A DNA stretch of 64,000 bases from Candidatus Shapirobacteria bacterium (GCA_043817235.1 JBDRHA010000006.1:10041-74040), one strand, 5' to 3'. Shown: positions 1 through 36,813, counted from the first letter of the stretch. The notes: generated by a model from the sequence alone, not told the origin. Program-made: numbers and translations.

Positions 1-3
1 GCG

Positions 4-429
4 ATGATTGCCATAGGAGCGCTGGTTCTTTTTTTGCTTTTGCTTTTTGCCAATCAGGTTGTGCCGCGGGTGCTTTTGTATTTAACCCAGGCCACAAATT
101 CGCCGGGCCAGTATTCATTAGCTAATTCTTATGTTTTTGGCTCACCCTTAGTAGCCGCGGCTAATGGCGAGGATAAAATTAGAGTAACGGCTTTTTTGCT
201 TGACGATAAGGGTCGGGGAGTGGCTGGCTCGCAGATTGACTTAAGGGTAGCGCCAGCAAGCCCGCCTACTGGCGAGGCAAGCCCCCAGATTGAAGCAGTT
301 ACACCCGTGACAGACGAATTTGGCCGGGCAGTTTTTGAGATATTTTCCTCTAGCAAGGGCCAGTTTGTGGTATCAGCTCAAGTCGGCGGGTTGGATTTTC
401 CTCAAACGACCACGCTGACTTTTAGGTAA
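4..429 (+). CDS. C-terminal fragment of a secreted protein with a bacterial Ig-like (Big_1/invasin-like) domain; 5' end lies outside the window
   Basis: ORF open from the window edge. The pattern GEDKIRVTAFLLDDKGRGVAGSQIDLRV...TDEFGRAVFEIFSS...VSAQVGG resembles Big_1 beta-sandwich repeats. Assigned from memory of that family, not from a search. Confidence 0.35.
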   Translation: MIAIGALVLFLLLLFANQVVPRVLLYLTQATNSPGQYSLANSYVFGSPLVAAANGEDKIRVTAFLLDDKGRGVAGSQIDLRVAPASPPTGEASPQIEAVTPVTDEFGRAVFEIFSSSKGQFVVSAQVGGLDFPQTTTLTFR

Positions 430-435
430 AAGCCA

Positions 436-766
436 CAGCGCCATTACGAAGGGCGTGTCGTCCCCGCGAAAGCGGGATTTCTTGTCATCCTCGCGAAGGC
501 GGGGATCTATAAAAATATTAATATAGATTCCCGATCAAGTTGGGAATGACACTGTAAATAGTCATCCTGAGCGCAGCCCCGCGAGTCGCGGGGCGCAGCC
601 GAAGGATCTTTTAATTCCGAAGATCTCTCGGCTACGCTCGAGATGACATTGTTTCTGGCAATGGCATTTGGTTGACTTGTCTTTTTGCAGGGGTTTGATT
701 TATCAAGCCCAAAGTTTAATTTCCCCACACACCCGGTGTGGTTCGGGTCACACCGGGTGTGTGTAA
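436..766. repeat. MITE-like palindromic repeat cluster (TGTCAT... family), ending with the hairpin CACACCCGGTGTG-GTTCGGGT-CACACCGGGTGTGTG
   Basis: Direct reading. gtcatcctcgcgaaggcggggatc and gtcatcctgagcgcagccccgcgagtcgcggggcgcagccgaaggatc are units that recur throughout the window. The palindrome is ccccgcgagtcgcgggg. Confidence 0.8.
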
Positions 767-769
767 GCA

Positions 770-1642
770 TTATTCGAATTTAGCAGTTTGCTTTGCTCGT
801 CTGCTAGAATATTTACGCCTAATTAGCAAATAGATGATAAGAGCGATAGCAGATAATAGCAAGATAGTGATAAAGAACGGGTGGTTAATTAGCCACCATT
901 GCCAAAAAGAAAGAGCCGCAAACTGAATAGTATTGCTTTTGGGCGACGGATTTTCTCCTAGTTGAGTTTTGGTGGCGCCCACGTAAAGTTTCCAAACTGA
1001 GGGTTTATCTGTGGGTAAATTAAATGAGAAATCGCCGCGACTGTCGCTCTTTATTTCTAAATTTGGCCCTTCGCGAGCTAGTATCGGGCGACTGAAAAGA
1101 CGGCCCAGAATACTCCAAAAATATATTTTATTATCCTCAAAAAGAAAAACGCGCACTTCGGAACTGGGAACAGTGGCGCCTTCGGCACTGTTTTCTTCGC
1201 CTAGCCAATAAACTCCTTTTTCTATGCTGATAGTGGGCGGCAAAATAATGCCGGAAATACTGGTGTAAGTTTCGGCGGCCGGAGGAGAGAAGCAGACAGG
1301 CGCGGAAGAACGGTTTTGGGTATCAATGGCCGTAAAGCAAAAATCGCCGCTGTAAAGAGGCATGAGCGCGTTATAAAAGTGGAAAATACCTTGGTCGTCG
1401 GCAATAGTTTCTAAGTTTACGTTGCCCTGGGAGGAAGAGAACTCAACTCGGGCAAAAGCCGAAGTTAAGCCCTCAATGTCAAATAAACAGCCGCCGACGC
1501 GAGCCGATACCTTAGTGGTGAACTCCGGAGGGATTTTAATTCGGTTGACGGTTGTTTCCTGTTCTAAGATGACAGCCTTAACAGAGGAGCAGCAAAGGAG
1601 AAAGAAAGCAAAGAAAAAAATCATTGGGGCAGTTTTTTTCAT
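770..1642 (-). CDS. hypothetical secreted protein with N-terminal signal peptide and C-terminal transmembrane anchor
   Basis: N-terminus MKKTAPMIFFFAFFLLCCSSVKA is a signal peptide. The C-terminal hydrophobic stretch PFFITILLLSAIALIIYLLI is followed by RRKYSSRRAK. Last gene of the minus-strand operon 770-7800. Confidence 0.5.
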   Translation of the reverse strand: MKKTAPMIFFFAFFLLCCSSVKAVILEQETTVNRIKIPPEFTTKVSARVGGCLFDIEGLTSAFARVEFSSSQGNVNLETIADDQGIFHFYNALMPLYSGDFCFTAIDTQNRSSAPVCFSPPAAETYTSISGIILPPTISIEKGVYWLGEENSAEGATVPSSEVRVFLFEDNKIYFWSILGRLFSRPILAREGPNLEIKSDSRGDFSFNLPTDKPSVWKLYVGATKTQLGENPSPKSNTIQFAALSFWQWWLINHPFFITILLLSAIALIIYLLIRRKYSSRRAKQTAKFE

Positions 1643-1667
1643 GAAATCATGATAGCATGAACTTCAA

Positions 1668-2002
1668 TTGCGAGCGCTTTGTCATTCCGAGCGACCCCGC
1701 AGCTGCGGGAGAGTCGAGGAATCTTTGGAAACTAACCGACCTTTTTTCTGGCTCAAAAGATCTCTCGACTGCGCTCGAGATGACAGACTCACTATCAACC
1801 CCGCGCAGGCGGAATTTCTTGTCATCCCCGCGAAGGCCGAGAGCCCTGGTCATCCTGAGCGTAGCCGAAGGATCTTTCTTGTTTTGCTTAATTCCCCAAA
1901 AGATTCCTCGACTGCGCCCCGCGACTTGCGGGGCTGCGCTCGGAATGACACTGGTAGCGGGGGCTCGCGATGACATGTTTCGCACACCCCTGGTGTGTGT
2001 TT
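1668..2002. repeat. MITE-like palindromic repeat cluster, several nested or tandem units in both orientations
   Basis: Contains tgtcattccgagcgaccccgcagctgcgggagagtcgaggaatcttt, gtcatcctgagcgtagccgaaggatc and cgcgacttgcggggctgcgctcggaatgacac. Ends with the cacacccctggtgtgtg hairpin. Confidence 0.8.
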
Positions 2003-2057
2003 CTTTTTGGGCGTGATAAATCACGCCTCCTGCAAACTGCAGTTTCGAATTTGGAAA

Positions 2058-3008
2058 TTAGGATTTTGCTTCCGCTTTAAGTTCTTTTGGTTTCTTGAAG
2101 TAGATGATCAAAAGCACGATTAAGACAATGATAAGCAGGGCAATAGTCATCGCTCTCCAGGGAATAATCCAGAAAAAAGTGGTAGCTATTAAGGTTTTGC
2201 CCTGATTGCCGTAGCCTGCTTCCAGCTGAACTTTATACTTGCCAAACCCCCATTTTTGGTTCCAAATATTTTCAAAAGCGCGAATGGTCGTGGGGAAAAT
2301 ATTTTGCTCTTCTAATTTTAAGGTTTGATTATGCTGTCCTAGCCAATTGGTGATTTTAATACTGCCCATCGGCCGGATATGAATGTCGGAAAGGTTATAA
2401 ATTTCTGTGTCAATGTTTACTGGGCCGTATTCTTGGAATTTAGGAGTAGAGAATAAGCTTACCCGGGCATCTTCTTTAGTGTCGCCGGCAATTGTTAAGT
2501 AAATTAAAGAGCCGACGTTGGGCTCAATCGAGGAAACACTTTCATTAGCTTCCAAAGATTCGCCTGCAGGGGCGTAAAAAATAACGGCGTAATGGCCGCC
2601 GGGAGCCGCATCTTCCGGAACTACAGCCACAAAATCAAGCACTTTAGTTTCTCCGGGGTTAAGCAAAAATTTTTGGGGAGAAACGGTAATCCATAGCGAA
2701 GCGGCATACTGGTCGGCAAGCCCTTCTTCTACCGGAAGGGGAGTGCCTTCTTTATCGTTAACTATAAAGTCCTGAATTTTAAGCTCGATGCCGAGCTGAG
2801 AATCACCTTCGTTTCTCACTTTTAGCTGGTCAACCACCACATCGCCGGGATTAGCGGAAATTTCTAATCGAGGCGGAATGGCCGTGAGCTTAATTAATTG
2901 CGCGGCACCAGCCTGAGAAGGCTGGAGTAGCAAGTAGAAAGTAGCAAGTAGTAAAGGCAATAAAGCAAAAGAGCCTATTTTGACAATTTTTTTCTTTTTT
3001 ATTTTCAT
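2058..3008 (-). CDS. surface-anchored protein B1: signal peptide, beta-sandwich-like ectodomain, C-terminal TM anchor. Paralog of the 4461-5471 gene.
   Basis: N-terminal MKIKKKKIVKIGSFALLPLLLATFYLLLQPSQA. C-terminal WIIPWRAMTIALLIIVLIVLLIIYFKKPKELK. Architecture is reminiscent of DUF916-type cell-surface proteins (analogy only). Confidence 0.55.
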   Translation of the reverse strand: MKIKKKKIVKIGSFALLPLLLATFYLLLQPSQAGAAQLIKLTAIPPRLEISANPGDVVVDQLKVRNEGDSQLGIELKIQDFIVNDKEGTPLPVEEGLADQYAASLWITVSPQKFLLNPGETKVLDFVAVVPEDAAPGGHYAVIFYAPAGESLEANESVSSIEPNVGSLIYLTIAGDTKEDARVSLFSTPKFQEYGPVNIDTEIYNLSDIHIRPMGSIKITNWLGQHNQTLKLEEQNIFPTTIRAFENIWNQKWGFGKYKVQLEAGYGNQGKTLIATTFFWIIPWRAMTIALLIIVLIVLLIIYFKKPKELKAEAKS

Positions 3009-3037
3009 ACTGTATACTTTCTACTCACTACTAGCTA

Positions 3038-4450
3038 CTAAAAGGTCGCCGTCGCCCGATATGTAATCGCGTTCCAATAATCGCCGGCTTGCTGGGTAGA
3101 AGAAACAATTGCTCGGTAGCAAACATAAGCATTTTCATTATCGGCCACTGTACCAGAATAGAAAATAGTTTGGTGAGCTTGAGTAGCGGATGCGTCTGCA
3201 AATTGTTTGGCGCAAAAAACGCCGTCGCAATCGTCGTCAGTAGAGGTATATTCAAAAGCTGCAGTATTCGCATCCACGTTTTCCAGGGAGTAGCCAAATC
3301 CCTTAGTATCAGTGCTTACCCATTCATCGGTTTGGGTGTGAGAAGCAGTGGTATTGTCTCCGGGCGTATCTGGAATTTCCGGAGCGGTAGCTCCTACCAT
3401 TGTTAGCTGATTATTTTCTAGAGCAGTGACAGCATAGCCGCCGTCAGCATTAGTGGAAACGGTCAAGTTTTGAGCCAGGTCAGCAAAAGAGCCGATAGAC
3501 AAAGAGCCAAAGGGTACAGTAGTTGCTGTAGAGGTAACATCAAGTGCATTGCCGCAGGCGGTTTCGCCGATAGCTATTCCGGCAATAGAAAAAGAAATAG
3601 TCGGATCAACTGTAGCAGTGACTCGCACTGACTCAATAACGGCAACTTTGGTAGTGGTGGAATCAATCGCTGTGTAGTTGGCATCAAGATTATCAACAAT
3701 AATACTGTAAGTATCGGCAGTTCCTGCAGTGTGGCCGGTAGTGGCCGAAGGATTAATTATTTCAGCAGCGCTGCCTACAACAAAAGTCATAGATCGGCCC
3801 GGGTCGCCTGGGCCGGAATAGCGGCATTCAAAGCAATGGTAGCCGGATGCACATCCTGATCCGGCGGAAGCGGTGGCCGTGCCGGTAACAAAGTCATAGT
3901 AGCTGGCCACATCATTCGGGCAGGTGACATCTGTGCCGGAAACTGAATTAAAATCCCAGCCTTCGTTATCAGGATGGCCGTCGTTGGGAGTAGTGGAATC
4001 GGCTTTAATCCGTACTTTAATGGCACCATTGGGGATAGCAGAAGTGGTTGTAAAAGTAATAGTGTGAGTGCCGGTCCGGTCAATGACAAATTCATCATTA
4101 GCATCATCGTCCGCCGCGTTTAAAGCGGAAGTAACGGCAAATTCGTCACTATCTATAACATAGTCAACAGTATAAGTATTGCTGGTAGCAGTGTAAACAA
4201 CTGTGTCTCCGGTAAAAATGTTGGCGGTGGTGGTGGAGGGAGTGCCGGCGCCAGCCATTTTAATAATCGTCGTGCCAGCGGTTAACTGCTCATTATTTTT
4301 GCCATGAAAAGAAAGGCGGGAGGTTTCTAAAGTATCGGCAATTGAAGTTAGGTTCGCGGATTCTAAAGAAAAAGGAAAAACAAAGCTCAGGCTAATAATT
4401 AGAATAAAATAACTTAAAACCCTAATTATTTTTTTGCTATTTTTCTTCAT
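3038..4450 (-). CDS. secreted Thr/Ser-rich protein A1: signal peptide plus C-terminal domain shared with the 6299-7072 protein
   Basis: Signal peptide MKKNSKKIIRVLSYFILIISLSFVFPFSLES. The C-terminus KQFADASATQAHQTIFYSG...AGDYWNAITYRATATF aligns with RQFADQEGAESAQIVMSS...AGNYENAITYIAVPGY of the 6299-7072 ORF. Confidence 0.55.
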   Translation of the reverse strand: MKKNSKKIIRVLSYFILIISLSFVFPFSLESANLTSIADTLETSRLSFHGKNNEQLTAGTTIIKMAGAGTPSTTTANIFTGDTVVYTATSNTYTVDYVIDSDEFAVTSALNAADDDANDEFVIDRTGTHTITFTTTSAIPNGAIKVRIKADSTTPNDGHPDNEGWDFNSVSGTDVTCPNDVASYYDFVTGTATASAGSGCASGYHCFECRYSGPGDPGRSMTFVVGSAAEIINPSATTGHTAGTADTYSIIVDNLDANYTAIDSTTTKVAVIESVRVTATVDPTISFSIAGIAIGETACGNALDVTSTATTVPFGSLSIGSFADLAQNLTVSTNADGGYAVTALENNQLTMVGATAPEIPDTPGDNTTASHTQTDEWVSTDTKGFGYSLENVDANTAAFEYTSTDDDCDGVFCAKQFADASATQAHQTIFYSGTVADNENAYVCYRAIVSSTQQAGDYWNAITYRATATF

Positions 4451-4460
4451 AACTGGTTTG

Positions 4461-4721
4461 CTAAATTTCTTTATTAATATTTTTACCTAATTTTAATTTC
4501 CTTGTCAATGGGTAGTATTTAAGCAAAACAGCGATTAGAAAGGCGATAATCAAAGCCGTTATAAGTCTAATAGGAACAATCCAAAACCTCGTAGCGAATT
4601 TAATTATAGGGCTATTTCCATTGGGCGCCAGACTTAATTCTGCCAAGTAAGGGCCGGGAAAGAAAGAAGAAAAGGCGCAGTCTTTTTCCTGGCAGGTGAG
4701 CAGGCGCCCGGAAAAAGACAA
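4461..4721 (-). pseudogene. C-terminal TM-anchor segment of surface protein B2, separated from its body (4746-5471) by an in-frame TAA
   Basis: Same frame as the 4746-6299 ORF; the stop is the reverse complement of tta at 4746-4748. ATRFWIVPIRLITALIIAFLIAVLL parallels TTFFWIIPWRAMTIALLIIVLIVLL of B1 (2058-3008). Confidence 0.4.
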
Positions 4722-4745
4722 AACATTATCTGGCCTTAATTCTAT

Positions 4746-5471
4746 TTATTTAATTTTTTTGCCAAAGATATTATAGATCTCTATTTTCCCGGCGCTTTTA
4801 AAAAAATTTTCTCCTAAATTAGCGGCCTTAATCGTGAATTTTATTTCCTGACCTAAATCAGCCAATTTAGGTTGGCTGAAAAACTCGCTTATTTCTCCTT
4901 TGGCTTCCAGATCAGCGGTTTGGGAAACTGTAATTAAAATATTACTGCCGATCTGGCCGGCCAAGCCGGGCTGCGCCTGCTGCTCGGAGAAGCTCACTTC
5001 AGGGATTTGCTGAATAAAAAACGTCGCATAATAATCTTTTTGGGGAAGATCCAAAGGCGCAGTAATTTTCAAAACCAGCTGCTGGCTTTGGTTAGGCTCC
5101 AGAACAAAAGTATCGCCCAAATTTATATTAGCGTTATTAAGTTTAAACTCGGGAAGACCCGTAAAAATATCCGGTTCTTGATATGTAATTTGGCCCTCCT
5201 TCGCCAAGGCTTCGGAGGGTAGAAAAAACCTAATTTCAGTTTGTAAATAGAGCAGGGAAGTGCCTAGGTTTTTTACCTCATAAGCTTGGGTGATGCTTTT
5301 TCCCGGCTGCAAGACAACTTCCAAAAGAGGAGGGGAAAGGGAGAGGGAGAAGCTCTGACCAGCGGCGAGGCAAGCCCTGTTTCCCCTGGCCGCTATAAAG
5401 GATATAACGGTTATAACGATTATAATTTTTATAGCGGCCAACAGGAAAAAAAGGACCAAGAGAGCAAGAGA
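4746..5471 (-). CDS. surface protein B2 ectodomain, paralog of 2058-3008. It has no start codon of its own and is read through in frame from the upstream four-helix-bundle ORF.
   Basis: Signal-peptide-like LALLVLFFLLAAIKIIIVITVISFIAA, then LLEVVLQPGKSITQAYEVKNLG..., comparable to LIKLTAIPPRLEISANPGDVVVDQLKVRNEG of B1. The ORF caller fuses it to 5520-6299. Confidence 0.45.
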   Translation of the reverse strand, partial: SLALLVLFFLLAAIKIIIVITVISFIAARGNRACLAAGQSFSLSLSPPLLEVVLQPGKSITQAYEVKNLGTSLLYLQTEIRFFLPSEALAKEGQITYQEPDIFTGLPEFKLNNANINLGDTFVLEPNQSQQLVLKITAPLDLPQKDYYATFFIQQIPEVSFSEQQAQPGLAGQIGSNILITVSQTADLEAKGEISEFFSQPKLADLGQEIKFTIKAANLGENFFKSAGKIEIYNIFGKKIK

Positions 5472-5519
5472 GGCGGTGCCCGCCTCTCGGCGGTAATTTA
5501 GCCGCTTTTTGAGGAGGTT

Positions 5520-6020
5520 TTCTCGAAAACCCCCATTTTTAACAAAGTCCTCCTCCAGCCAGCGCAGTTTTTGGTCTAAAAGCTGGTTTGTCTGGTTAAT
5601 TAGGCAGATCATGGTGTTGGCTGCGGTTTCTCCGCTGCTCTGGTATTTTTTATAATCGTTATAATTTTTATAACGCTTATATACCAAAGCTCTAACAGCT
5701 TTGGCGCTCGGATCGTCTTTAGCCCAAATTTTCAGCTTTTTTTGACGCAAAAAGTCTTGGTAGTCGTTGAGAAGCTCTTCTAAAGAAGCGCGGGCAACGG
5801 CTAAGAGATTGAGTTTGAGCGCACTACTTTTTTGCAAGTATCCTTCGGCGATGTTCTGTTTGCCGGAGCGTGCGGCCTGAATAAGCTGATCGCTTTGCCG
5901 TGAGAAGTTCTTATAACTTTTATGACGGTTATAATTTTTATAAGGGCCAGAAAAACATTTATCTATGTATTTCTCGCAAAACTCCACCGTAAAATCGTGG
6001 ATTATTTCTGCCTGCTGGAA
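5520..6020 (-). CDS. four-helix-bundle protein (TIGR02436-like; the 23S rRNA intervening-sequence protein family). N-terminus unresolved; the upstream part of the ORF, to 6299, is MITE-derived.
   Basis: SDQLIQAARSGKQNIAEGYLQKSSALKLNLLAVARASLEELLNDYQDFL matches the family hallmark Q..R.a.Si..NIAEG...s.......l.iA.gSl.El (from memory). Tyr/Asn-rich 9-bp repeats lie at both ends. Confidence 0.5.
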
Positions 6021-6039
6021 AAATGGAAGAGAGCGATAC

Positions 6040-6250
6040 CCTCCTTCGCTAAAGCTACGGCGGGCAGGCCCTCCTTCGCGGGCAAGCCCTCCTCTGTCAT
6101 TGCGAGGAGTCCCGATGCTTCTTTTAGTCACCGGGACGACGTGGCAATCCCGTTTTGAGATTGCTTCAGTTTCGTTCGCAATGACATTTTTGTTAACCCC
6201 TGTTGCTGCGGTGTGGTTCGGGTCACGCCCGGTGTGTGATTTATCTTCTT
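6040..6250. repeat. MITE-like repeat cluster embedded in frame in the 5' part of the 4746-6299 ORF
   Basis: tgtcattgcgaggagtcccgatgc ... gtggcaatcccgtttt ... gttcgcaatgacattt, plus the ggtgtggttcgggtcacgcccggtgtgtg hairpin. Confidence 0.75.
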
Positions 6251-6298
6251 TCTGGTCCCTATAACGATTATAATGGTTATAACTGTTATATCCCGTCA

Positions 6299-7072
6299 TC
6301 AGTACCCCGGAACAGCAATATAAGTAATGGCATTTTCATAGTTTCCGGCGGCCTGGGATCCGCTGATATTAACTTTATAAGTAACTGTTGCGGTTGAGGA
6401 GGAAGTGACGGCATCAGAGCTCATCACGATTTGAGCACTTTCCGCGCCTTCTTGGTCAGCAAACTGGCGAAAAAAAGTAGAATCTTCAAAATCTTCCGGA
6501 ATATCATCGCCGCTGATTTTAAAGCCAAAGCCGTAAATAGAATCATTTATCCAGGGATCAGCGTCTGTTTCATCGCAAGAAAGTGTGTCACAAGTAGTAT
6601 CAACTATATCATTGGCTTGCTCAGAGCGGAGCGGATGGTTTTCAAAAGCCAGAACTTGGTACCCGCCGGCGCCACCAGCCGATACATTTAAAGTATTGGT
6701 GTCTGTCGAGGGGGTGCCGGGGACTAGTGAGCCAAAAGCAATGCTTAAATCGGAAATTGTAAAAGTAAAGGGAATAATAGAATGAATATACTGGAACCCG
6801 GCTCTCAGCCAATAGCCGTCGGACTGATAATCGCCGGGGGCAATCTGGCCAATAGTGTCGGTTAGGTTATAGCTGTCGGAGGATTTTTCTCCGCCGCCGA
6901 TGTTCACGTTTCCGCCCTGAATTTTATAGCTATCGGAATCCATATTGGCCGCGTTCACCCTCCGATTCGGAAGGCTCACCCTCCGGATTGGAGGGCTGGC
7001 TGCTATAAAAGATATAATCATTATAATAGTTATAATTTTTATAGCGGCCAACAAGAAATGAAGGCGGGTCAC
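6299..7072 (-). CDS. secreted protein A2, a shorter paralog of A1 (3038-4450)
   Basis: N-terminal MTRLHFLLAAIKIITIIMIISFIAA is encoded by the 57-bp repeat at 7002-7058. The C-terminal domain aligns with the A1 C-terminus. Confidence 0.5.
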   Translation of the reverse strand: MTRLHFLLAAIKIITIIMIISFIAASPPIRRVSLPNRRVNAANMDSDSYKIQGGNVNIGGGEKSSDSYNLTDTIGQIAPGDYQSDGYWLRAGFQYIHSIIPFTFTISDLSIAFGSLVPGTPSTDTNTLNVSAGGAGGYQVLAFENHPLRSEQANDIVDTTCDTLSCDETDADPWINDSIYGFGFKISGDDIPEDFEDSTFFRQFADQEGAESAQIVMSSDAVTSSSTATVTYKVNISGSQAAGNYENAITYIAVPGY

Positions 7073-7800
7073 GCCTCATCTCCCTCCAAATCAACCAATC
7101 TTTGCAGTTTATTAGCTCCCCTTAGCAGATATTTAGTTCGTTTGCGAATTTTCTTTAAATGATCTTTTTGAGTATAAGATAGCTGATTTAAAGCAATAAG
7201 CATTTGGGAAACCCGATCCAAAATTTCTTCCAGTCCTGGCTTGAGCTTTAAAGTGAGCCAAAACAAAGTATTAGCTTCCTGATTTTCCAAATGCTTTTCT
7301 CCGGAAAGCCATTTTTGCATGTAAAGCTTAGTTCTTTTGTCAGCGCTTAAATTGCGCAAATAAAGCTGGCCAAAATATAAAGCTAAGGGAGTGATTAGGA
7401 ATAAAGATAGCAGAGCGGCAATTTCCTGGCTGTTTTGAACGGTGGGTGTTAAAAAAACCAAGAGAATAAAAGCTAAAGTGATAGTAATTGGTGGCTCAAA
7501 AAGAAAAGAGAGCCCAAAAAGAAGAAAGTATATTAAGAAAAAAAGCGGGGAGCTTGCCCCGCCGGTGGCAAAAACCAGCAAAAGGATAACAATCGTTAAA
7601 ATTAAAGCATCTATTGTTTTATGAGTAAGATTTTGTTCTTGGCAAAAGAGCTTGTGTTTTAAAAACCAGATAATGACTAAGCCGGCAATAAGCTGAAGAT
7701 TGTAAAAAGAAAGAATTGGGTGCTGGGTCCAAACATAGGTAGTAACCACGGCCAAGAATAAATAAACAAGATGGAGAAAGAATTTGACCGAAATAATCAT
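7069..7800 (-). CDS. hypothetical polytopic membrane protein, first gene of the minus-strand surface-protein operon
   Basis: About 5 hydrophobic helices in the first 150 aa, followed by a charged coiled-coil-like C-terminus. The 4-nt overlap (ATGA) with the next gene suggests translational coupling. Confidence 0.45.
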   Translation of the reverse strand: MIISVKFFLHLVYLFLAVVTTYVWTQHPILSFYNLQLIAGLVIIWFLKHKLFCQEQNLTHKTIDALILTIVILLLVFATGGASSPLFFLIYFLLFGLSFLFEPPITITLAFILLVFLTPTVQNSQEIAALLSLFLITPLALYFGQLYLRNLSADKRTKLYMQKWLSGEKHLENQEANTLFWLTLKLKPGLEEILDRVSQMLIALNQLSYTQKDHLKKIRKRTKYLLRGANKLQRLVDLEGDEA

Positions 7801-7918
7801 AAATTAATTTAAGCAAGATTAGCAAAGAATTGCAAACTTTGCACACCCCGGGGGTGGGTTAGGTAGACACCTCGGGTGCGGTTGAAAGTTTTTTTCTTTT
7901 TCTTCATAATCTTTTTTA

Positions 7919-8530
7919 ATGGCTGAGTGGTCAAAAGAAAGCATAATTAAAGCAATTTATCACTATTCTCCTCAAGCTGTAATAATTCTGGGAATACTTT
8001 TGGCGGCGGCCGGCGCAGCTTACGTTTTTCTTCCTTCCTCGTCTTCCTCCCAAGTAGAAATAATTAAAGCTGACGAGCAAGAGGAAACCGGAGTGCTAAT
8101 TGCAGATATCTCCGGAGCCGTTATTCAGCCCGGCGTTTACACTCTTTCGGCCGGCTCGCGCTTAAATGATCTTCTGATTGCCGCGGGCGGTTTAAGCATT
8201 GAAGCAGATCGGGACTGGGTGGAGAAAAATATTAATCGAGCCGCACCATTAATAGATGGAGCAAAAATTTATATTCCTAAAATAGGGGAGGAGGTGGGTC
8301 CGCCAGCTGGCGGAGTGGCGGGGCAGAGCACTTCGGGGCTAATAAACTTAAATCAAGCAGACTTAGCTTTATTAGAAACTTTGCCGGGGATTGGGCCGGC
8401 CACGGCTCAAAAAATTTTGGATTATAGAAAAGAAATCGGCTCTTTTTCTGCTCCCGAAGAATTAATGAGCGTTTCCGGAATTGGGCCAAAGACCTATGAG
8501 CAATTAAAAGACCTGATTTCCGTCTACTAG
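7919..8530 (+). CDS. comEA: competence protein ComEA (SLBB domain plus tandem helix-hairpin-helix DNA-binding domain)
   Basis: LINLNQADLALLETLPGIGPATAQKILDYRKEIGSFSAPEELMSVSGIGPKTYEQL is the classic ComEA HhH pair. There is an N-terminal TM. Confidence 0.85.
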   Translation: MAEWSKESIIKAIYHYSPQAVIILGILLAAAGAAYVFLPSSSSSQVEIIKADEQEETGVLIADISGAVIQPGVYTLSAGSRLNDLLIAAGGLSIEADRDWVEKNINRAAPLIDGAKIYIPKIGEEVGPPAGGVAGQSTSGLINLNQADLALLETLPGIGPATAQKILDYRKEIGSFSAPEELMSVSGIGPKTYEQLKDLISVY

Positions 8531-9699
8531 TGAGAAAAGCTTTTCTTTACTTTTTTATTTTTCTTCTTGCTTTTCGTATTTTTGGCTATTATTTTTCTTT
8601 AGCTTCCGGCTATCAGGCGGGGGATCAGGTGCTAATTCATGCTTGCCTGGATACTCAGCCGAAAATAACAAGCCGCAATCAGATTTTTTCTTTAAGCAAA
8701 CTAAGAATAATAACGTCGCAAAATGAGCAGATAAATTTTGGCGATTGTTTGCAAATTAAAGGCAAAGTGGGAGAAAAGGGCTTTTTGGTTGATCCGGAAA
8801 TTGAGTTTTGGGAGCCAGGTCTAGCAAAAGACTGGCTTAACGGCCTAAAGAAGTTCGGGTTTTGGCTTCAGCAAAAAGCCAAAAGCCATTACAATCATTA
8901 TTTGCCTGAGCCTGTTTCTTCTTTGCTTTCCGGCATTGTTTTGGGAGCCAAATCTAATTTGCCCGTTAATTTTTACCAGAAACTGCAAAATACGGGGACA
9001 TTGCATATCGTGGTTGCCAGCGGTTATAACCTTACTGTTATAAGCCAATATCCGGCTGATTTTTTAGCCTGGTTTACGGGCCGCAAGGCCGCTTTAGTCC
9101 TTGGTGGGGCATTGGTCTGGCTTTATGTATTGGTTGCTGGTTTTCAGCCGCCTATAATTAGAGCGGCATTAATCATTAGCTTAGTTTATCTAGCCCGGTA
9201 TTTAGGTAGGAAATTCGATGTTTGGCGTGGGTTTTGGTTAGTAATAGGCTTGATGCTTATTTTTTCGCCCAGCCTTATAGCAAGTATTTCTTTTCAGTTG
9301 AGCGTTTCGGCGATGTTTGGCTTGCTGTATTTTGAAGATAAGTTCCAAAGATTGAGAAATATTAGGTTCGTTGGCAAAGCGTTAGCCGAATCGCTAAGCG
9401 CTCAATTAATGGTTTTGCCGATTATAGGCTTTCATTTTGGAACTGTTTCCTGGGCTTCGCCATTAATAAATATGCTGGTATTGCCTTTTGTGCCGCTTTT
9501 GATGACATTGGGTCTAATATCTTTGGGAGCAAGACCTTTTTTATATCTTGTTTATCCGGCGGGTTATTTATTAGAGAAAATAATTAATTTTTTTGGCCGA
9601 TTCTCTTTTTTGCAAATTTCTTTTTCCTTTTCTTGGTTTTTGGTAATAATTTATTATTTGATTTTGTTTTATATTTTTGGATGGAGAAAAAAAGACTAG
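8530..9699 (+). CDS. comEC: ComEC/Rec2 DNA-uptake channel, N-terminal membrane part (DUF4131 plus competence domain)
   Basis: Polytopic membrane protein directly after comEA. Continues into the MBL-domain ORF in another frame. Confidence 0.75.
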   Translation: MRKAFLYFFIFLLAFRIFGYYFSLASGYQAGDQVLIHACLDTQPKITSRNQIFSLSKLRIITSQNEQINFGDCLQIKGKVGEKGFLVDPEIEFWEPGLAKDWLNGLKKFGFWLQQKAKSHYNHYLPEPVSSLLSGIVLGAKSNLPVNFYQKLQNTGTLHIVVASGYNLTVISQYPADFLAWFTGRKAALVLGGALVWLYVLVAGFQPPIIRAALIISLVYLARYLGRKFDVWRGFWLVIGLMLIFSPSLIASISFQLSVSAMFGLLYFEDKFQRLRNIRFVGKALAESLSAQLMVLPIIGFHFGTVSWASPLINMLVLPFVPLLMTLGLISLGARPFLYLVYPAGYLLEKIINFFGRFSFLQISFSFSWFLVIIYYLILFYIFGWRKKD

Positions 9700-10571
9700 T
9701 TGTTTTTTTACTGCTGGGGTTAATTATTTTATTTTGCCTCCAAAGGCCGGATAAGAATTTTCATGTTGTTTTTTGTGATGTGGGAGAAGGGGACGCGATT
9801 TTATTGATCCAAAAGAATAATCAGATTTTAGTAGACGGTGGACCGGGTTCTTCTGTTTTGAAGTGTTTGAGTAATAATGTCCCTTTTTGGGATCGGAAGC
9901 TAGAAGCAGTTCTCTTAACCCATCCGGACGCTGATCATTATTCCGGCTTAATTGAAGTTTTAAAAAGATACAAAATAGAAAATTTTTTTGCTCCGCCTTT
10001 AGGTCAAAAAAACGATCTGTCTTTTAAAAAACTTATTTCTTTGTTAATTGATCAAAAAATTACTCCACAAGCTTTAACTCAAGGAGATAAAATTAGAGTT
10101 GGTTTGATTGATTTTGATATTTTTTGGCCGACTAAAAATAAACTAAAAGAACTAGAGACATTTCAAGATATCTCTAGTTTTCAAAACGGCTTTTGGTTAA
10201 TAAGTGAGAGCTTGGTTAACAATAATGAGTTTTCTTTGGTTGCTCGAGCTACTTTCGACCAATTTGATCTATTGTTAACCGGTGACTTGCCAAGTAACTT
10301 AAGCCAAACTTTAGCCTGGCAAAATAAACTGCCCCAAGTAGAGATATTAAAGGCCAGCCATCATGGATCGGGAGCAGATAACCCGGATGAGCTCTATGAT
10401 AAGACTAACCCCAAGCTGGTGGCTATCAGTGTGGGCGAAAATAATTATGGTCACCCAGGTAAAGAGCTTTTGGAAAAACTCAAAAAACTGAATATTCCCG
10501 CCAAAAGAACCGATGAAAAAGGGGACATTGAGATTATTTCGGACGGAAAGTCTTGGTGGGTGGCCGACTAG
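9633..10571 (+). CDS. comEC: ComEC C-terminal metallo-beta-lactamase domain, either frameshifted relative to 8530-9699 or a genuinely separate polypeptide
   Basis: HVVFCDVGEGDAILLIQ...VDGGPG...LLTHPDADHYSGL...LKASHHGS are MBL motifs typical of the ComEC C-terminus. 67-nt overlap with the preceding ORF in a different frame. Confidence 0.75.
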   Translation: MVFGNNLLFDFVLYFWMEKKRLVVFLLLGLIILFCLQRPDKNFHVVFCDVGEGDAILLIQKNNQILVDGGPGSSVLKCLSNNVPFWDRKLEAVLLTHPDADHYSGLIEVLKRYKIENFFAPPLGQKNDLSFKKLISLLIDQKITPQALTQGDKIRVGLIDFDIFWPTKNKLKELETFQDISSFQNGFWLISESLVNNNEFSLVARATFDQFDLLLTGDLPSNLSQTLAWQNKLPQVEILKASHHGSGADNPDELYDKTNPKLVAISVGENNYGHPGKELLEKLKKLNIPAKRTDEKGDIEIISDGKSWWVAD

Positions 10572-10852
10572 CAAAAAATCACACACTCGGTGTGAATTCG
10601 AACCACACCGGGCGTGTGGGAAGCGGGGTGTCGTCGCGAGAGGTGTTCAGTGTCATTGCGGGGCTCGCAATGACAGTCCAAATAGTCATCCCGAGCGCAG
10701 TCGAGGGATCTTTTGAACCAGAAAAAAGGTCGGTTAGTTTCCAAAGATTCCTCGGCTACGCCCCGCAGTTGCGGGGCTGCGCTCGGAATGACACTGAAAA
10801 CAGATTCCCGATCAGGTTGAGAATGACAAAGGAGGTCAGAGTGAGGCTGTAA
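10572..10852. repeat. MITE-like palindromic repeat cluster
   Basis: cacactcggtgtgaattcgaaccacaccgggcgtgtg hairpin, gtcattgcggggctcgcaatgaca, gtcatcccgagcgcagtcgagggatctttt and cgccccgcagttgcggggctgcgctcggaatgacac. Confidence 0.8.
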
Positions 10853-10905
10853 TGACAAAAACCCTGACAATAACATTTCGATTTTAAGACCTTATTTGTC
10901 AAAAT

Positions 10906-11166
10906 ATGCTATATTCAATCATGGTTTATCTTTGGGATTATGATTTAAAAAAGCTAAAGAAAAACAAGAGCGAGCGGGCGAAAATTTTTCTTTTGGAAAG
11001 AATGATAAATTATGGCCCTGGCAAAGAAAAAATAGACTTAAAAGAAGTGAAAAAATATTGGGATAAACTCAATTTGTTTAAACTGCAAAGACGTTTATTT
11101 GAACTATTAATATGGGGAAAATATCAATCCTCACCCCGGACCAAAAAGCCTTTCTGGCGGGGTTGA
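10906..11166 (+). CDS. hypothetical small protein upstream of, and overlapping, the AbiEii-like gene. Possible cognate antitoxin or a fragment.
   Basis: Position only; no recognisable motif. Confidence 0.2.
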   Translation: MLYSIMVYLWDYDLKKLKKNKSERAKIFLLERMINYGPGKEKIDLKEVKKYWDKLNLFKLQRRLFELLIWGKYQSSPRTKKPFWRG

Positions 11167-11768
11167 AGAAAAATCATTATTTTTGCGATAATTTTTACTT
11201 TACTGGAGGCACTGCTTTGGCTGAGTATTATCTTAGCCATCGTTTATCAGAGGATTTAGACTTTTTTTCCGACAAAAGATTTGACAATCATAGGGTGTTG
11301 GGTGGAATAAGAGACTTAAGCAAACTTCTTAATTTTAGCTTTAATTCCCATTTTGCGGAGCCTGCTTACAGTTTTTTTCTCAAGTTTTCTTCTCATTCTC
11401 CAACGAAAATTGACTTTGGTTTTTTCCCTTATCCTAGGTTGGGAAAGAGATTGAAGAAGCAGGGAATTTTGATTGATAGTCAGCTGGATATTGCTGTTAA
11501 TAAATTAATGACTATCTCCCAAAGAACGGATATCAAAGATTTTGTTGATCTTTACTTTTTGCTTGATAAATATTCTTTTTGGGATTTGTTTAGGGGAGTG
11601 GAGGCAAAATTTAAGCAAGAACTTAACCCTTTAATTATTGCTTCTGATTTCTTAAAAATTGAAGAGTTTAATTTCTTGCCGAAAATGATTAGATCTCTCG
11701 AGTTAGAAGATCTGAAAATTTTTTATCGCAAATTAGCAAAAAGATTGGGGAAAAAGAGTTTGCAATAG
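11112..11768 (+). CDS. AbiEii/DUF1814-family nucleotidyltransferase (type IV TA / abortive-infection toxin family)
   Basis: FTGGTALAEYYLSHRLSEDLDFF matches the GGTAL...R.S.DiD nucleotidyltransferase core of the AbiEii family (from memory). Confidence 0.55.
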   Translation: MGKISILTPDQKAFLAGLKKNHYFCDNFYFTGGTALAEYYLSHRLSEDLDFFSDKRFDNHRVLGGIRDLSKLLNFSFNSHFAEPAYSFFLKFSSHSPTKIDFGFFPYPRLGKRLKKQGILIDSQLDIAVNKLMTISQRTDIKDFVDLYFLLDKYSFWDLFRGVEAKFKQELNPLIIASDFLKIEEFNFLPKMIRSLELEDLKIFYRKLAKRLGKKSLQ

Positions 11769-12030
11769 CTTGAGCAAGAGATTCAAGATCACTCCGAACG
11801 TCCACGCTTTCTGGAGCACAAACAAATTCAATATTTTGGGCAGGGTCGTAATTATGATGAAGCTGGTCAGCTAGCATCACTCCGCGGGCGCGGTTGAGCA
11901 GACGCTCTGCATAGCCAAGATCGGCAGTTTCTAGGCCAGGCAGCACTGAATAAATTAAAGCCTCTTTTGCCGCTGCGGGTCGGACTGGGTAGGAGCGAAT
12001 AGAAATAATGTCTTTTCTTTCTGGGGTCAT
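11689..12030 (-). CDS. hypothetical protein; overlaps the AbiEii gene 3' end by 80 nt on the opposite strand
   Basis: 113-aa ORF with ordinary composition and no recognised motif; may be spurious. Confidence 0.2.
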   Translation of the reverse strand: MTPERKDIISIRSYPVRPAAAKEALIYSVLPGLETADLGYAERLLNRARGVMLADQLHHNYDPAQNIEFVCAPESVDVRSDLESLAQAIANSFSPIFLLICDKKFSDLLTREI

Positions 12031-33121: not shown

Positions 33122-34132
33122 ATGGCATTAAGTAAGCAGTTAGCGATCGACTTAGGCACGGCTAATTGTTTGGTCTGGGAAATTGGCAAGGGGTTGGTAA
33201 TCAACGAGCCGACGGTCGTGGCTGTTACTCTGGAAGAAAGAAAAGTTTTGGCCGTAGGCAAGGAGGCAAAAGAAATGCTGGGCCGCACTCCTGAATACAT
33301 TGAGGTAGCTCGGCCAATGCGCGAGGGAGTAATTGCTGATTACCAAGTAACCGAGTCTATGCTTCGCTGGTTTATTCGCCAAACCGGAACTGGCATATTG
33401 AGTTTTTTTAAGCCGGAAGTGATGGTTTGCGTGCCTACAGGAGTGACCCAAGTAGAGCAAAGAGCGGTTTTGGATGCGGCTTTAAGCGCCGGGGCCCGGG
33501 TGGCTTATTTAATTGACTCGCCCTTGGCGGCGGCAATTGGAGCTGGTATTCCTATCAGTTTGGCGGCCGGCAATATGATTGTGGATATTGGTGGCGGAGC
33601 GTGTGAAGCGGCAGTAATCGCCTTAGGAGGAGTAGTGGTTCATAAAAGTGTTCGGGTGGCGGGCAATAAACTGGATGAGGCCATTATTAATTGGCTGAAA
33701 AAAAATCATAATATTGTTGTTGGCGATCAAACGGCCGAGCAAATAAAAATCGAAATTGGTACAGCTCTGCCCAGTAAAAGCAAAGAAAAGAAGATGGCTA
33801 TCCGCGGGCGGGATTCGGTCTCCGGCTTGCCGCGAAAAGTTGACTTGGCTTCTGTTCAAGTTAATGAGGCTATAAATGAGCCCTTAGCAGAGATTTTAAG
33901 TGCTGTTCGCGGGGTTTTAGAAAAGACGCCGCCAGAGTTGGTTGCTGATATTGTAGATAAAGGGATTATTCTTTCCGGCGGAACAGCACTATTAAATAAC
34001 CTAGATAAATTTTTAACAAGACAGATAGGAGTTTCTTTTCATGTGGCTCAAGAGCCGCTTCTTTGCACTGTTAAGGGAACGGCTATTGCTTTAGAGAACC
34101 TAGAAGAGTACAAGAGCTCTTTAAGATTTTAA
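33122..34132 (+). CDS. mreB: rod-shape-determining actin homolog MreB
   Basis: LAIDLGTANCLVWEIGKGLVINEPTVVAV phosphate-1 motif; DIGGGACEAAVIALGG phosphate-2; about 336 aa. Confidence 0.95.
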   Translation: MALSKQLAIDLGTANCLVWEIGKGLVINEPTVVAVTLEERKVLAVGKEAKEMLGRTPEYIEVARPMREGVIADYQVTESMLRWFIRQTGTGILSFFKPEVMVCVPTGVTQVEQRAVLDAALSAGARVAYLIDSPLAAAIGAGIPISLAAGNMIVDIGGGACEAAVIALGGVVVHKSVRVAGNKLDEAIINWLKKNHNIVVGDQTAEQIKIEIGTALPSKSKEKKMAIRGRDSVSGLPRKVDLASVQVNEAINEPLAEILSAVRGVLEKTPPELVADIVDKGIILSGGTALLNNLDKFLTRQIGVSFHVAQEPLLCTVKGTAIALENLEEYKSSLRF

Positions 34133-35601
34133 ATCCTATATAGATAAGAGTGCTAAAAGTATATTATATGCATTTTGAATATTAATAACCTCTTATAGTA
34201 TAAAGATAATTAATTTAAAACATTATTTAAGAATAATAAAGAGTATTAGTAGATTATTTACATCTTTATGAATAATATAAAAATAATTTAGAGCAAAATA
34301 TTTATACTAAAAAGGAAAAATATTGTTTCAGGCCTGAAGATATTCATATCTTATAGAAAAGATAGCGAAAAACTATGTTAAGAAGAATAATATTATTAGC
34401 ATAATTAGATTATTATAGGAAAGATTAAGAGAATTTTAGTTAATTTATTAAAGTATTAATAAAATATATCTCTTGAAAAAAGTTAAAATAATTAAAAAAT
34501 TATCAAAATAATTTAGTAGACCTAGAGAAAGTATAAATAAGGATGCGAAAATAGTGAAAAGATTATCGTTAATTAGAAAAATCTTATCTTAAAGACAAAA
34601 AAATGACCCAGAAAGGCCATTCTCTTGGGTTAGAATACTCGTAAAGAATGGGTAAAAAACTATATTTTATTCCTTTAGCAAAGCATACAAAGCTCTGATA
34701 AGTTCACCTGCGTTCTAATATTATATTTCCTATCTATAGGGATTTTATTGTAAATAGTCTTGTTTCGTGCCTGAGCGGGAAGACGCTGGGTTTTCATAAG
34801 AAAGAAGAATCAAAAAACCAAAAAGAATAGTTAGTTCTTTTAAAAGATTTAATGCGGAAAATATTTTTGCTTTTTTTTAGCACACGGCCAGGAAAGCAAA
34901 AAATATTCGGTATATGGCTTATTATGGCCCACTAGAGCGGTGCTGAGCAGCTTTGAGCTTCTTTGACTACTTGAGTAGAGGTAATTTCCTTAAGTTAACA
35001 ACTCTAAAATAATCTTGAGGGCTTAGCAAGAAAAGCAGTTCTTTGATAAATTTCAGGATAAAAGCATAATTGGAGGTGAGAAATAAGTGGTGAATAGATA
35101 GTGGATAGGGATAAATATCTGAAGTTTTTTTTGCCTTACCCCAGGCGTATTTTTTTGGTGATTCAGGAGAGATTTAAGAGTGATGTAGGGTGTGATTAAG
35201 ATGTAGGCAAAAGAGCCGCTGAATTTCTTTGTTGCCTTGAAAAATACAGAAAAAGCCCTTTTTTTCCATTGATAGTTTTTTATATCTTTTAATTATCAGT
35301 ATAGTCTTTTAATAGCCAAAGATAGGGGGAGTTATATTAGCAATTTCAACTTTTCACGAAGCATGCACTCGGGGTTAGGATAAATAAAATATTATCGCAG
35401 GTTATCCGATTGTGTAGCAGTGTATGCCTAAATATGTAAAATAGATTGTGAAAATAGACTAAAATATTTTTCGCAAAATAATTATTAAATCAACCATGCT
35501 TTTAAAAACTAGTTCTTGACATGCTAACAGATGATTTGTTATTGTTGTTTTAATAAAGACATTCATTGTTATAAATAATAGTAGAAAATTAAAAGAAGAA
35601 A

Positions 35602-35817
35602 ATGACGCAAGAAAAAAAAGAAATTTCTCTAGAAAATCTTCCTGATTTATTGACTGTTAGAGAAGTGGCGGAATTGCTCCGAGTTTCTCCCTTAACAGTA
35701 AAGCGCTGGGGGAATAGAGGAAAGTTAGTGCCGATCCGAATAAATGCTCGAGGCGACAGGCGATACCGCAAGGAGCAGGTTTTATATTTACTAGGAATGT
35801 ATCAAAAAGAAGAATAG
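35602..35817 (+). CDS. excisionase/MerR-superfamily HTH DNA-binding protein (Xis/AlpA-like)
   Basis: LLTVREVAELLRVSPLTVKRWGNRGKLVPIRINARGDRRYRKEQV matches the excisionase-family DNA-binding domain pattern (TIGR01764-like, from memory). Confidence 0.5.
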   Translation: MTQEKKEISLENLPDLLTVREVAELLRVSPLTVKRWGNRGKLVPIRINARGDRRYRKEQVLYLLGMYQKEE

Positions 35818-35859
35818 TTTATTAGTTGCCAAATAAATAAAAAAGGACTAAATTAGTTT

Positions 35860-36813
35860 ATGGGCAAAATCCAAATAATTTCTGGAAGTGCCCATCCCAG
35901 GCTCGCTCGCCAAATTTGCTCCTATTTAAAAATAAAGTTAACTCCTGTACAAATTGAACATTTCGCTGATGGCGAAATTTACGTTAAGATCAAAAATAAG
36001 GTGCGAGGCGATGATGTGTTTATCATTCAAAGCATGGCGCCGCCAATCAATGACCACTTAATGGAGCTTTTGATTATGATTGATGCTTTAAAAAGAGCTT
36101 CGGCCGATAGGATTAATGTGGTTTGCCCTTATTTATGCTACTCTCGACAAGAGAGGAAGGCCAGCTCGCGGGAACCGATTAGTGCCAAGCTCGTGGCCGA
36201 TTTAATTACCAAAGCCGGCGCAACCCGCCTGCTGACAGTGGACTTGCATGCGGACGCAATTCAGGGTTTTTATGATATTCCCGTAGATCACTTTGTTGGA
36301 TACCCAAAGTTTGTCGAGTATTTGGAAAAAAAGAAATATAAAGATTTAGTAGTAGTTTCGCCGGACGTGGGGGGAATGAAAAGAGGAAGAGCAATGGCCA
36401 AACTGTTAAATGTCCCTTTGGCGGTAATTGATAAAAGGCGGCCGCGAAAGAATAGGGCCGAGGTGTTGGCGATTATCGGCGAAATTAAAAACAAAACGTG
36501 CATAGTGCTAGACGATATAATTGATACTGCGGGCACGATTAGTAACGTGACTCAGGTTTTAAAAGATCGGGGAGCCAAAGAAGTAATTATTTGTGCCACT
36601 CATGCCCTTTTTTCCGGTGAAGCTTGCAAGAAAATTAATGGCTGTCCGGCTTCCAAAGTCCTGCTTTTAGATACTCTGCCCCTGGCTAAAGAAAAGCAGT
36701 CGGAAAAAGTGGAAATTATTTCTCTGGCTAAGCTTTTTTCCAAGATAATCAGAAGAATTCACTCCGGCCGCTCCTTAGGCGCGCTTTTTGATTGGGAAAG
36801 CAAGATAAAATAA
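35860..36813 (+). CDS. prs: ribose-phosphate pyrophosphokinase (PRPP synthetase)
   Basis: VRGDDVFIIQS; PYLCYSRQERKASSREPISAKLVADLITKAGATRLLTVDLHADAIQGFYDIPVDH; PRPP-binding VVSPDVGGMKRG. Confidence 0.95.
   Translation: MGKIQIISGSAHPRLARQICSYLKIKLTPVQIEHFADGEIYVKIKNKVRGDDVFIIQSMAPPINDHLMELLIMIDALKRASADRINVVCPYLCYSRQERKASSREPISAKLVADLITKAGATRLLTVDLHADAIQGFYDIPVDHFVGYPKFVEYLEKKKYKDLVVVSPDVGGMKRGRAMAKLLNVPLAVIDKRRPRKNRAEVLAIIGEIKNKTCIVLDDIIDTAGTISNVTQVLKDRGAKEVIICATHALFSGEACKKINGCPASKVLLLDTLPLAKEKQSEKVEIISLAKLFSKIIRRIHSGRSLGALFDWESKIK

Follow-up and report, generated by a model that had tools for sequence, protein, structure and literature searches.

A compact operon of a Candidatus Shapirobacteria genome probably encodes a Pam-type pilus with chaperones distantly related to WxL-interacting proteins

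A stretch of 64,000 nucleotides from a Candidatus Shapirobacteria bacterium (GCA_043817235.1, JBDRHA010000006.1:10041-74040; this whole stretch is the window below) carries at positions 770 to 7800 a minus-strand operon with six conserved genes, in the order membrane protein, tip protein (A2), B2, A1, B1 and anchored protein, plus one insertion. The cluster probably specifies a Pam-type pilus, that is, an usher-less, chaperone-assisted, thin donor-strand surface filament of a monoderm bacterium belonging to the Candidate Phyla Radiation (CPR). The Pam pilus was described by cryo-electron microscopy (cryo-EM) in Candidatus Mycosynbacter amalyticus (preprint, bioRxiv 10.64898/2026.03.03.709456). 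According to that preprint, the cryo-EM filaments consist of PamA and PamB (PDB 25PZ, 25QA), two-domain pilins in which the interdomain linker, among the best-conserved parts of both proteins, is donated to the truncated immunoglobulin (Ig)-like C-terminal domain of the subunit that follows. The tip is formed by PamT, which has a single domain; PamC and PamD are predicted chaperones of the PapD/FimC type that bear a membrane helix at the C-terminus, and an usher is absent. PamR was proposed there as fibre terminator and anchor; its two beta-sandwich domains (FnIII, RbmA-like) are arranged in tandem between a donor strand at the N-terminus and a membrane helix at the C-terminus. Distant Pam homologues in Microgenomatia were reported as well. 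This kind of pilus has thus been known since the 2026 preprint, and the present cluster adds a member from Microgenomatia.

A first-pass annotation of the window had read the operon as seven genes built from a tandemly duplicated A-B pair, with paralogy between the C-terminal domains of A1 and A2 and between the ectodomains and C-terminal anchors of B1 and B2. Formal alignment bore out both relationships: A1 and A2 share 33% identity in the last 160 residues (BLASTP, E = 4e-18) and the alignment of B1 and B2 spans 295 residues at 25% identity (E = 7e-19) and takes in an FWI(I/V)P motif as well as the hydrophobic helix at the C-terminus. Since both similarities are significant, the lack of similarity that the annotation had named as counter-evidence was not seen.

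The A proteins link the operon to the Pam system. A1 (3038-4450, 470 aa), the putative major pilin, matched the NCBIfam model NF058581 (CPR_Pam_pilin_C, "Pam pilus system pilin subunit") over positions 3-148 of 148 (E = 1.9e-6, 28 bits), and A2 (6299-7072, 257 aa) matched the whole of the same model (E = 1.5e-8, 34.8 bits) as well as NF058579 (CPR_pilus_PamT, "CPR-type pilus protein PamT"; E = 6.3e-12, 45 bits), to which its orthologues align at positions 7-241 of 241 (E = 1e-13 to 4e-9). Among 76 A-family members 70 matched NF058581 at E<=0.01 (best 1.7e-11); every other NCBIfam family was matched by one of the 76 at most. Homology of A1 and A2 to the Pam pilin model is supported by these matches at scores that do not reach the naming threshold, and A2 is, as judged by sequence, a divergent PamT homologue and not an equivalog by the NCBI threshold. 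When single proteins were scanned, A1, A2 and B1 matched no Pfam family, and sequence searches of the Protein Data Bank (PDB) with A1, A2, B1 and the A-family profile gave no match.

The AlphaFold2 model of A1 (mean predicted local distance difference test score, pLDDT, 92.8) consists of an N-terminal beta-sandwich at about residues 32-272 with strands until 271, a coil linker at 272-284 in which the pLDDT dips to 82, and a C-terminal beta domain at 285-470 that contains the Pam-type domain (309-470). Residues 273-283 of the linker (ESVRVTATVDP, encoded at 3602-3634), the candidate donor strand, form the best-conserved 11-residue window in the A family (3.96 bits compared with a mean of 2.86), as would be expected for a donor strand and in agreement with what the preprint reports for Pam pilins. 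The arrangement by which a Pam two-domain pilin is recognised, an N-terminal beta-sandwich, a linker that is the best-conserved part and a C-terminal domain, was thus found in A1, while A2 is a single-domain, tip-like protein. A1 contains eight cysteines. The A proteins had been described as Thr-rich, which fits A1 (15.1% Thr) and not A2 (7.8%).

B1 (2058-3008, 316 aa), which adjoins A1, was modelled by AlphaFold2 (mean pLDDT 90.2) as a signal peptide followed by two beta-sandwich domains, with a membrane helix at the C-terminus (residues 284-305). When the model was compared with the PDB by Foldseek the top match was a WxL-interacting protein (WxLIP) of Enterococcus faecium (9i25_C/9i1y, E = 2.4e-11), followed by CfaA, FimC, Caf1M, CsuC and others (E = 1e-10 to 1e-8), and B1 matched the two-domain chaperones along the full fold, beyond a single Ig domain. 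The features of Pam-type chaperones, i.e. a PapD/FimC-like fold, a C-terminal membrane helix and the presence of two paralogues, were accordingly found in the B family, although the second paralogue, B2 (4461-5471, adjoining the tip gene), is disrupted in this genome.

The last gene of the operon (770-1642, 290 aa) encodes an anchored protein with a signal peptide and a C-terminal hydrophobic segment at residues 249-278, and it follows B1 in nearly all relatives. Its family comprises 31 homologues, with weak matches to CarboxypepD_reg in 25/30 and to Big_6 in 21/30 members, which suggests two beta-sandwich domains ahead of the C-terminal helix. By analogy with the architecture of PamR the protein is a candidate terminator and anchor; that it also has an N-terminal donor strand is a guess from the alignment. 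The first gene (7069-7800, 243 aa, locus tag ABIB61_00745, exact match to MFH1601468.1) encodes a polytopic membrane protein with about 5-6 hydrophobic segments and a C-terminal helical tail according to hydropathy, and its family (374 representatives of about 200-250 aa) belongs to no Pfam family. The gene is always located ahead of the tip gene in the relatives, and its product may take part in the system. A truncated histidine kinase was considered as its identity and rejected, given that the 150 homologues listed were all short and none matched HisKA or HATPase.

To define the conservation of the cluster, genomes of GTDB species were scanned with B1, which gave >487 relatives, and the loci of the best 80 were searched with hidden Markov models (HMMs) built from the operon families. 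Almost all of these 80 were from Shapirobacteria or other Microgenomates. The order membrane protein, tip, B2, a gap of 0 to 6 kb, A1, B1 and anchor recurs across about 80 Microgenomatia loci; of the 53 loci whose upstream flank measured 8 kb or more, 36 had the module of membrane protein, tip and B2, which was not found nearby in the other 17, and the adjacencies of tip with B2 and of A1 with B1 were kept even where unrelated genes split the modules (e.g. locus L005). In related contigs a membrane protein, an A2-like protein, an intact B2-like protein of 338 aa, an A1-like protein, a B1-like protein and an anchored protein follow each other in this order, at the same location between ComEA/ComEC and a Big_1 gene. 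What varies among the relatives is the number of major-pilin genes and the presence or absence of the tip module; two tandem A1-type genes upstream of a single B1-type chaperone were seen in the Microgenomatia loci L038, L043, L050, L052, L055, L065 and L073. Several of the records (L010, L011, L015, L019-L021, L033 and others) bear titles such as "uncultured Gammaproteobacteria", "Pseudomonadales" or "Candidatus Methanoperedens" and are evidently mislabelled or mis-binned.

On the Pam-type reading all subunits would be exported by Sec. A1 would be the single major shaft pilin, with a C-terminal domain that is an incomplete Ig-like fold, and in the filament this fold would be completed by the linker ESVRVTATVDP of the neighbouring subunit through donor-strand exchange, while the single-domain A2 at the tip would accept the first strand. 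B1 and B2 would act as PapD-like chaperones that are held in the membrane by the C-terminal helix and cap the open groove until exchange occurs, with the presumed clients encoded by the adjoining genes (A1 for B1 and A2 for B2). The 290-aa anchored protein would end the fibre and tie it to the membrane, and neither an usher nor an ATPase would participate in assembly. In this genome B2 is damaged by a nonsense codon and by the inserted four-helix-bundle element. Paralogy, homology to the Pam models, the chaperone fold and the conservation of linker and operon are results of the analysis; polymerisation, the matching of chaperones with clients and the functions of the anchor and of the polytopic membrane protein are inferred.

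Several points weigh against this reading. All Pam matches are under the curated NCBI cut-offs (28 and 35 compared with 55 bits for the pilin model and 45 compared with 240 for PamT), the N-terminal domain of A1 matched no Pam model, and the A1 fold gave only generic beta-sandwich matches in the PDB, where Pam pilins are apparently absent from the libraries. B1 itself, the orthologues of B2 and the anchor matched no NCBIfam model, Pam or other, at E<=0.1, no NCBIfam model stood out across the B family, and the chaperone role of PamC and PamD is itself only predicted (10.64898/2026.03.03.709456). The anchor matched CarboxypepD_reg and Big_6 types, whereas the domains described for PamR are FnIII, the published model contains no counterpart of the conserved polytopic membrane protein, and for this lineage the filament is a prediction from genes and single-protein models.

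The comparison with WxL clusters bears directly on the main rival explanation. The first-pass annotation had compared the A-B pairs with the WxL/DUF916 surface-protein operons of Gram-positive bacteria, and this analogy held for the B proteins and failed for the A proteins. The commonest Pfam match of the B family was PF06030 (DUF916, WxLIP_PGBD), which was found in 63 of 81 members at E<=1 (sub-threshold, best 3.2e-6) and not in B1 itself, and the top match of the B-family profile among PDB sequences was EfmWxLIP1, at a marginal E = 0.03. For comparison, ten proteins annotated as DUF916/DUF3324 and another ten, WxL proteins, were collected from plasmids of Enterococcus, Lactococcus, Listeria, Lactiplantibacillus and Latilactobacillus. 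Alignment of the B family with the ten WxLIPs by hhalign gave 97.3% with signal peptides included, 83.8% (E = 7.9e-6) when the signal peptide and membrane helix were trimmed and 89.6% (E = 1.9e-6) for the N-domain alone, with controls at <=20% throughout; a single 122-residue WxLIP fragment gave a weak 5%, so that the comparison is informative only with the ten-protein alignment. For the C-domain hhalign found no sequence similarity to DUF3324. These results support homology of the B-protein N-domain with DUF916 of WxLIPs, and the B proteins as distant relatives of the Gram-positive WxL-interacting proteins. Conversely, none of the 76 A-family members had a WxL match in Pfam, neither A1 nor A2 contains a W-x-L motif, no WxL chain was among the top A1 fold matches, and hhalign against the ten WxL proteins gave 0.1% for the A C-terminal domain and 1.9% for the tip family. 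At least two partners with a C-terminal WxL domain (PF13731) and its dual W-x-L motif, the mark of a WxL cluster, are thus lacking here.

Given the relationship of the B proteins, the operon could alternatively encode a static WxL/WxLIP-like display complex, in which B stalks permanently hold A proteins by strand insertion and no polymer is formed. This is the main rival, corresponds to the cell-surface complex of the first-pass annotation and appears unlikely to us. It would account for the best match of B1 to a solved structure being a WxLIP "bound to long WxL", for the DUF916 homology of the N-domain and the recurrent PF06030 matches, for the presence of one B gene next to each A gene, and for a gene grammar (small protein, large protein, WxLIP) similar to that of WxL clusters, which typically contain one WxLIP, one small and one large WxL protein. 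WxLIPs are predicted to insert a strand of a beta-hairpin into WxL, and this together with the similar cluster make-up suggests a similar logic, although no relationship between the partner domains could be detected. The A proteins, however, lack the WxL domain and motif, their C-terminal domain is homologous to a domain that polymerises in cryo-EM, the best-conserved part of A1 is an interdomain linker that a static complex does not explain, and the operon ends in a conserved gene for a further, separate anchored protein. The closer relationship of the A proteins to Pam argues for a polymerising filament rather than a static complex.

A second possibility, that secreted adhesins or wall proteins merely happen to be encoded beside Ig-fold membrane proteins to which they have no assembly relationship, is considered very improbable. 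Fold searches with A1 do yield generic beta-sandwich proteins only, Ig-like folds are very common in surface proteins, and the B family also weakly matches other E-set families (FixG_C and fn3_5), but the gene order is strictly conserved with genes that are tightly spaced or overlapping, the matches to the Pam pilin and PamT are specific, with NF058581 standing alone in the A family, and the B1 fold corresponds to complete two-domain chaperones. The first-pass annotation had also raised copy variation of the A-B pair, and a recent, copy-variable tandem duplication with functionally redundant pairs could have been in line with the two significant paralogies and with the tandem A1-type genes of some relatives. 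This explanation is essentially refuted by the divergence of the pairs (33% identity between A1 and A2 in one domain only, and only 25% between B1 and B2), by the different architectures of A1 and A2 and their matches to different Pam models, by the orthologous conservation of both modules in Microgenomatia (in the 36 of 53 loci with enough flank) and by pairs of near-identical contigs that show no indels and no length variation. Judged from the 25-33% identity and from the gene order and adjacencies conserved across relatives, the A-B duplication is ancient, asymmetric and fixed across Microgenomatia, and not a recent copy-variable repeat.

B2 had been listed as a gene at 4461-5471 but it is not intact. 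It is interrupted by an in-frame TAA at 4746-4748, where the orthologues read GKKKKEI, so that a single GAA-to-TAA change suffices to explain the stop; its start codon is missing at 5471, and no stop separates it from the four-helix-bundle open reading frame (ORF) upstream. As a result one 517-codon frame (4746-6299) starts at an ATG that overlaps the A2 stop (TGATG) and runs through sequence like repetitive extragenic palindromes (REP) and the four-helix-bundle domain before it enters the signal peptide and ectodomain of B2. B2 is orthologous to the 338-aa proteins of loci L002 and L003; its identity to orthologues is 49-51%, whereas the orthologues are 66% identical among themselves, and such an excess of divergence was much smaller or absent for the remaining five operon proteins. 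This excess indicates that B2 is probably decaying in this genome, unless the TAA is an assembly error.

The inserted element (5475-6298, minus strand) comprises a REP-like leader (about 6040-6298) and the four-helix-bundle ORF with a suffix domain (about 5475-6017). The four-helix-bundle insertion proposed earlier was confirmed by matches to TIGR02436 (E = 7.5e-7) and TIGR04258 (E = 2.2e-18), and PF05635 was matched as well. Lacking a start and a stop codon, the element continues in frame into B2, and it is absent from L003/L004. In other relatives a four-helix-bundle gene lies between the membrane protein and tip genes (L001), between B1 and the anchor (L084) or after the anchor (L068, L073 and L076), and in L015 and L023 it is located at the junction of tip and B2 too, but as a separate gene. 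Given that the junction varies, that the gene is separate elsewhere and that the in-frame fusion occurs only here, a functional tie to the operon was rejected and the four-helix-bundle gene is a passenger. A role as Avd of a diversity-generating retroelement (DGR) was considered because of the resemblance to PF05635/bAvd; no second copy of the gene is present in the 64-kb window, which was not screened for a reverse transcriptase.

A 69-nt repeat occurs twice with 84% identity, at 6996-7064 and 5386-5454, each copy with a 54-nt palindrome of TTATAANNN units whose arms abut with 0 nt between them; the first copy codes for the hydrophobic core of the signal peptide in A2 and the second for that in B2. 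The pattern TTATAANNNTTATAA is confined to 5402-7044 of the window (15 matches compared with 0.95 expected), and three further clusters of TTATAANNN units, at 5650-5682, 5911-5943 and 6259-6291 in or beside the four-helix-bundle ORF, add inserts of the YKNYN type. In relatives, too, one genome-specific short tandem repeat (e.g. CTATATT x4) encodes the signal peptides of more than one gene within the operon, for example at 6765 and 10035 in L001/L002, 6760-6860 and 7560-7620 in L003 and 6250-6330 and 7420-7500 in L023, and the repeat unit differs from genome to genome. This suggests that the segments coding for signal peptides are homogenised within genomes. Phase variation through these short repeats was considered and found no evidence, as the near-identical contig pairs are without indels. 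In A2 a tandem duplication of 21 nt (6955-6997) places SPPIRRV/SLPNRRV after the hydrophobic core and ahead of the conserved mature N-terminus, which makes the cleavage region of the signal peptide unusually long and Arg-rich.

Intergenic DNA in and around the operon is filled with GC-rich, REP-like hairpin repeats (462-612, 734-763, 1712-1949, 6209-6238 and 10669-10828), and so is the 415-nt stretch that separates B1 from the anchor gene (1643-2057). Inverted and direct repeats connect 1712-1949 with 462-612 and 10685-10757, a 30-nt repeat connects 6209-6238 in the leader of the insertion with 734-763, and spurious ORFs are generated by these repeats on both strands.

A six-frame listing of the window gave seven minus-strand ORFs in the region (7069-7800, 6299-7072, 4746-6299, 4461-4721, 3038-4450, 2058-3008 and 770-1642). 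The genes at 7069-7800, 6299-7072, 3038-4450, 2058-3008 and 770-1642 were confirmed as previously placed, and the count of seven was revised to six conserved genes and one insertion, which L003/L004 lack. The stop of the membrane-protein gene overlaps the A2 start (GTGA). B1, A1, the anchor and the membrane protein are identical to ABIB61_00725, _00730, _00720 and _00745 of a Candidatus Shapirobacteria metagenome-assembled genome (MAG), all four annotated at NCBI as hypothetical, and the assignment of the window to this MAG, a CPR genome, agrees with the earlier suggestion of a CPR-type cell; the description of the products as secreted or anchored surface proteins was supported as well. On one side the operon adjoins a gene for a Big_1/invasin-like Ig-domain protein and on the other the DNA-uptake genes ComEA and ComEC, a synteny that is conserved (flanking-gene stretches at 4-429, 7919-8530 and 8530-10571, plus strand), and between ComEA and the Big_1 gene there are only the six conserved genes and the insertion, with no usher, secretin or assembly ATPase and no usher-sized gene within the operon. 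No Rfam match was obtained in positions 1-12000 of the window, and scans for promoters and terminators were uninformative. The G+C content of 34001-36000 is 0.30 compared with about 0.40 in the remaining window.

These assignments place products that are called hypothetical at NCBI in a filament system first described in 2026, and the >487 relatives of B1 among GTDB species genomes indicate that its compact form with six genes is widespread among Microgenomatia. By pili of this sort the ultrasmall, host-dependent cells may reach their hosts and hold on to them. The part likeliest to interest specialists is the link between Pam chaperones and WxLIPs: the Pam preprint (10.64898/2026.03.03.709456) mentions neither WxL nor DUF916, and the measurable relationship between the anchored chaperones and the WxL-interacting proteins known from enterococci, lactobacilli and Listeria joins two literatures that do not cite each other and bears on the retention or assembly of WxL surface proteins.

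Like the Pam pilus, the cluster has a pilin of two domains, the C-terminal one related to the Pam-type domain, joined by a strongly conserved linker, two paralogous chaperones that are PapD-like and end in a membrane helix, and a monoderm CPR host without usher or ATPase. It also encodes a divergent single-domain homologue of PamT and a terminal protein for which two domains are suggested ahead of a membrane helix at the C-terminus. What is new compared with the type system is one major pilin gene instead of three (PamA, PamB and PamE), a different N-terminal pilin domain that no Pam model matches, scores under the NCBI naming cut-offs, an anchor of another fold class (CarboxypepD_reg/Big_6-like and not RbmA/FnIII-like), an additional conserved polytopic membrane protein at the head of the operon and different neighbours (ComEA/ComEC and Big_1, whereas the Mycosynbacter operon is reported beside ATP synthase genes), in Microgenomatia rather than Saccharimonadia. 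With the chaperone-usher pili of Gram-negative bacteria (Fim, Pap, CFA/I, Caf1 and Csu) the cluster has in common the two-domain PapD-like chaperone fold (Foldseek E = 1e-10 to 1e-8) and a presumed assembly by donor-strand complementation and exchange with tip, shaft and terminator subunits. A classical system of this type is defined by an outer-membrane usher and a soluble periplasmic chaperone, whereas here the host is a CPR bacterium with no outer membrane and no usher, the chaperones are held by membrane helices and the candidate donor strand is an interdomain linker and not an N-terminal extension; PapD_N was not among the 25 Pfam families matched by most B-family members.

The WxL/WxLIP (Csc) clusters of Lactobacillales and Listeria resemble the operon in that WxLIP, consisting of DUF916, DUF3324 and a membrane helix (9i25, 9i1y), is matched in architecture by B1, where two Ig-like domains lie between the signal peptide and a membrane helix at the C-terminus, and in that a small and a large secreted partner are encoded next to the anchored protein. 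They differ in that the partners here are without WxL domain and W-x-L motifs and carry a domain homologous to a polymerising pilin, in that two WxLIP-like genes are present instead of one, with similarity to DUF3324 undetectable in the C-domain, and in that neither an LPXTG protein nor a sortase is encoded. We tentatively consider, as a possibility somewhat short of even, that the Pam pilus and the WxL/WxLIP (Csc) clusters of Bacillota derive from one ancient monoderm, usher-less system in which membrane-anchored, PapD-like chaperones served secreted partners by strand insertion. If this is true, WxLIP would be a pilus-type chaperone and WxL clusters might build strand-linked assemblies, or alternatively the Pam "chaperones" could also act as permanent anchors, and the B family of Microgenomatia would be the sequence bridge between Pam and WxLIP.

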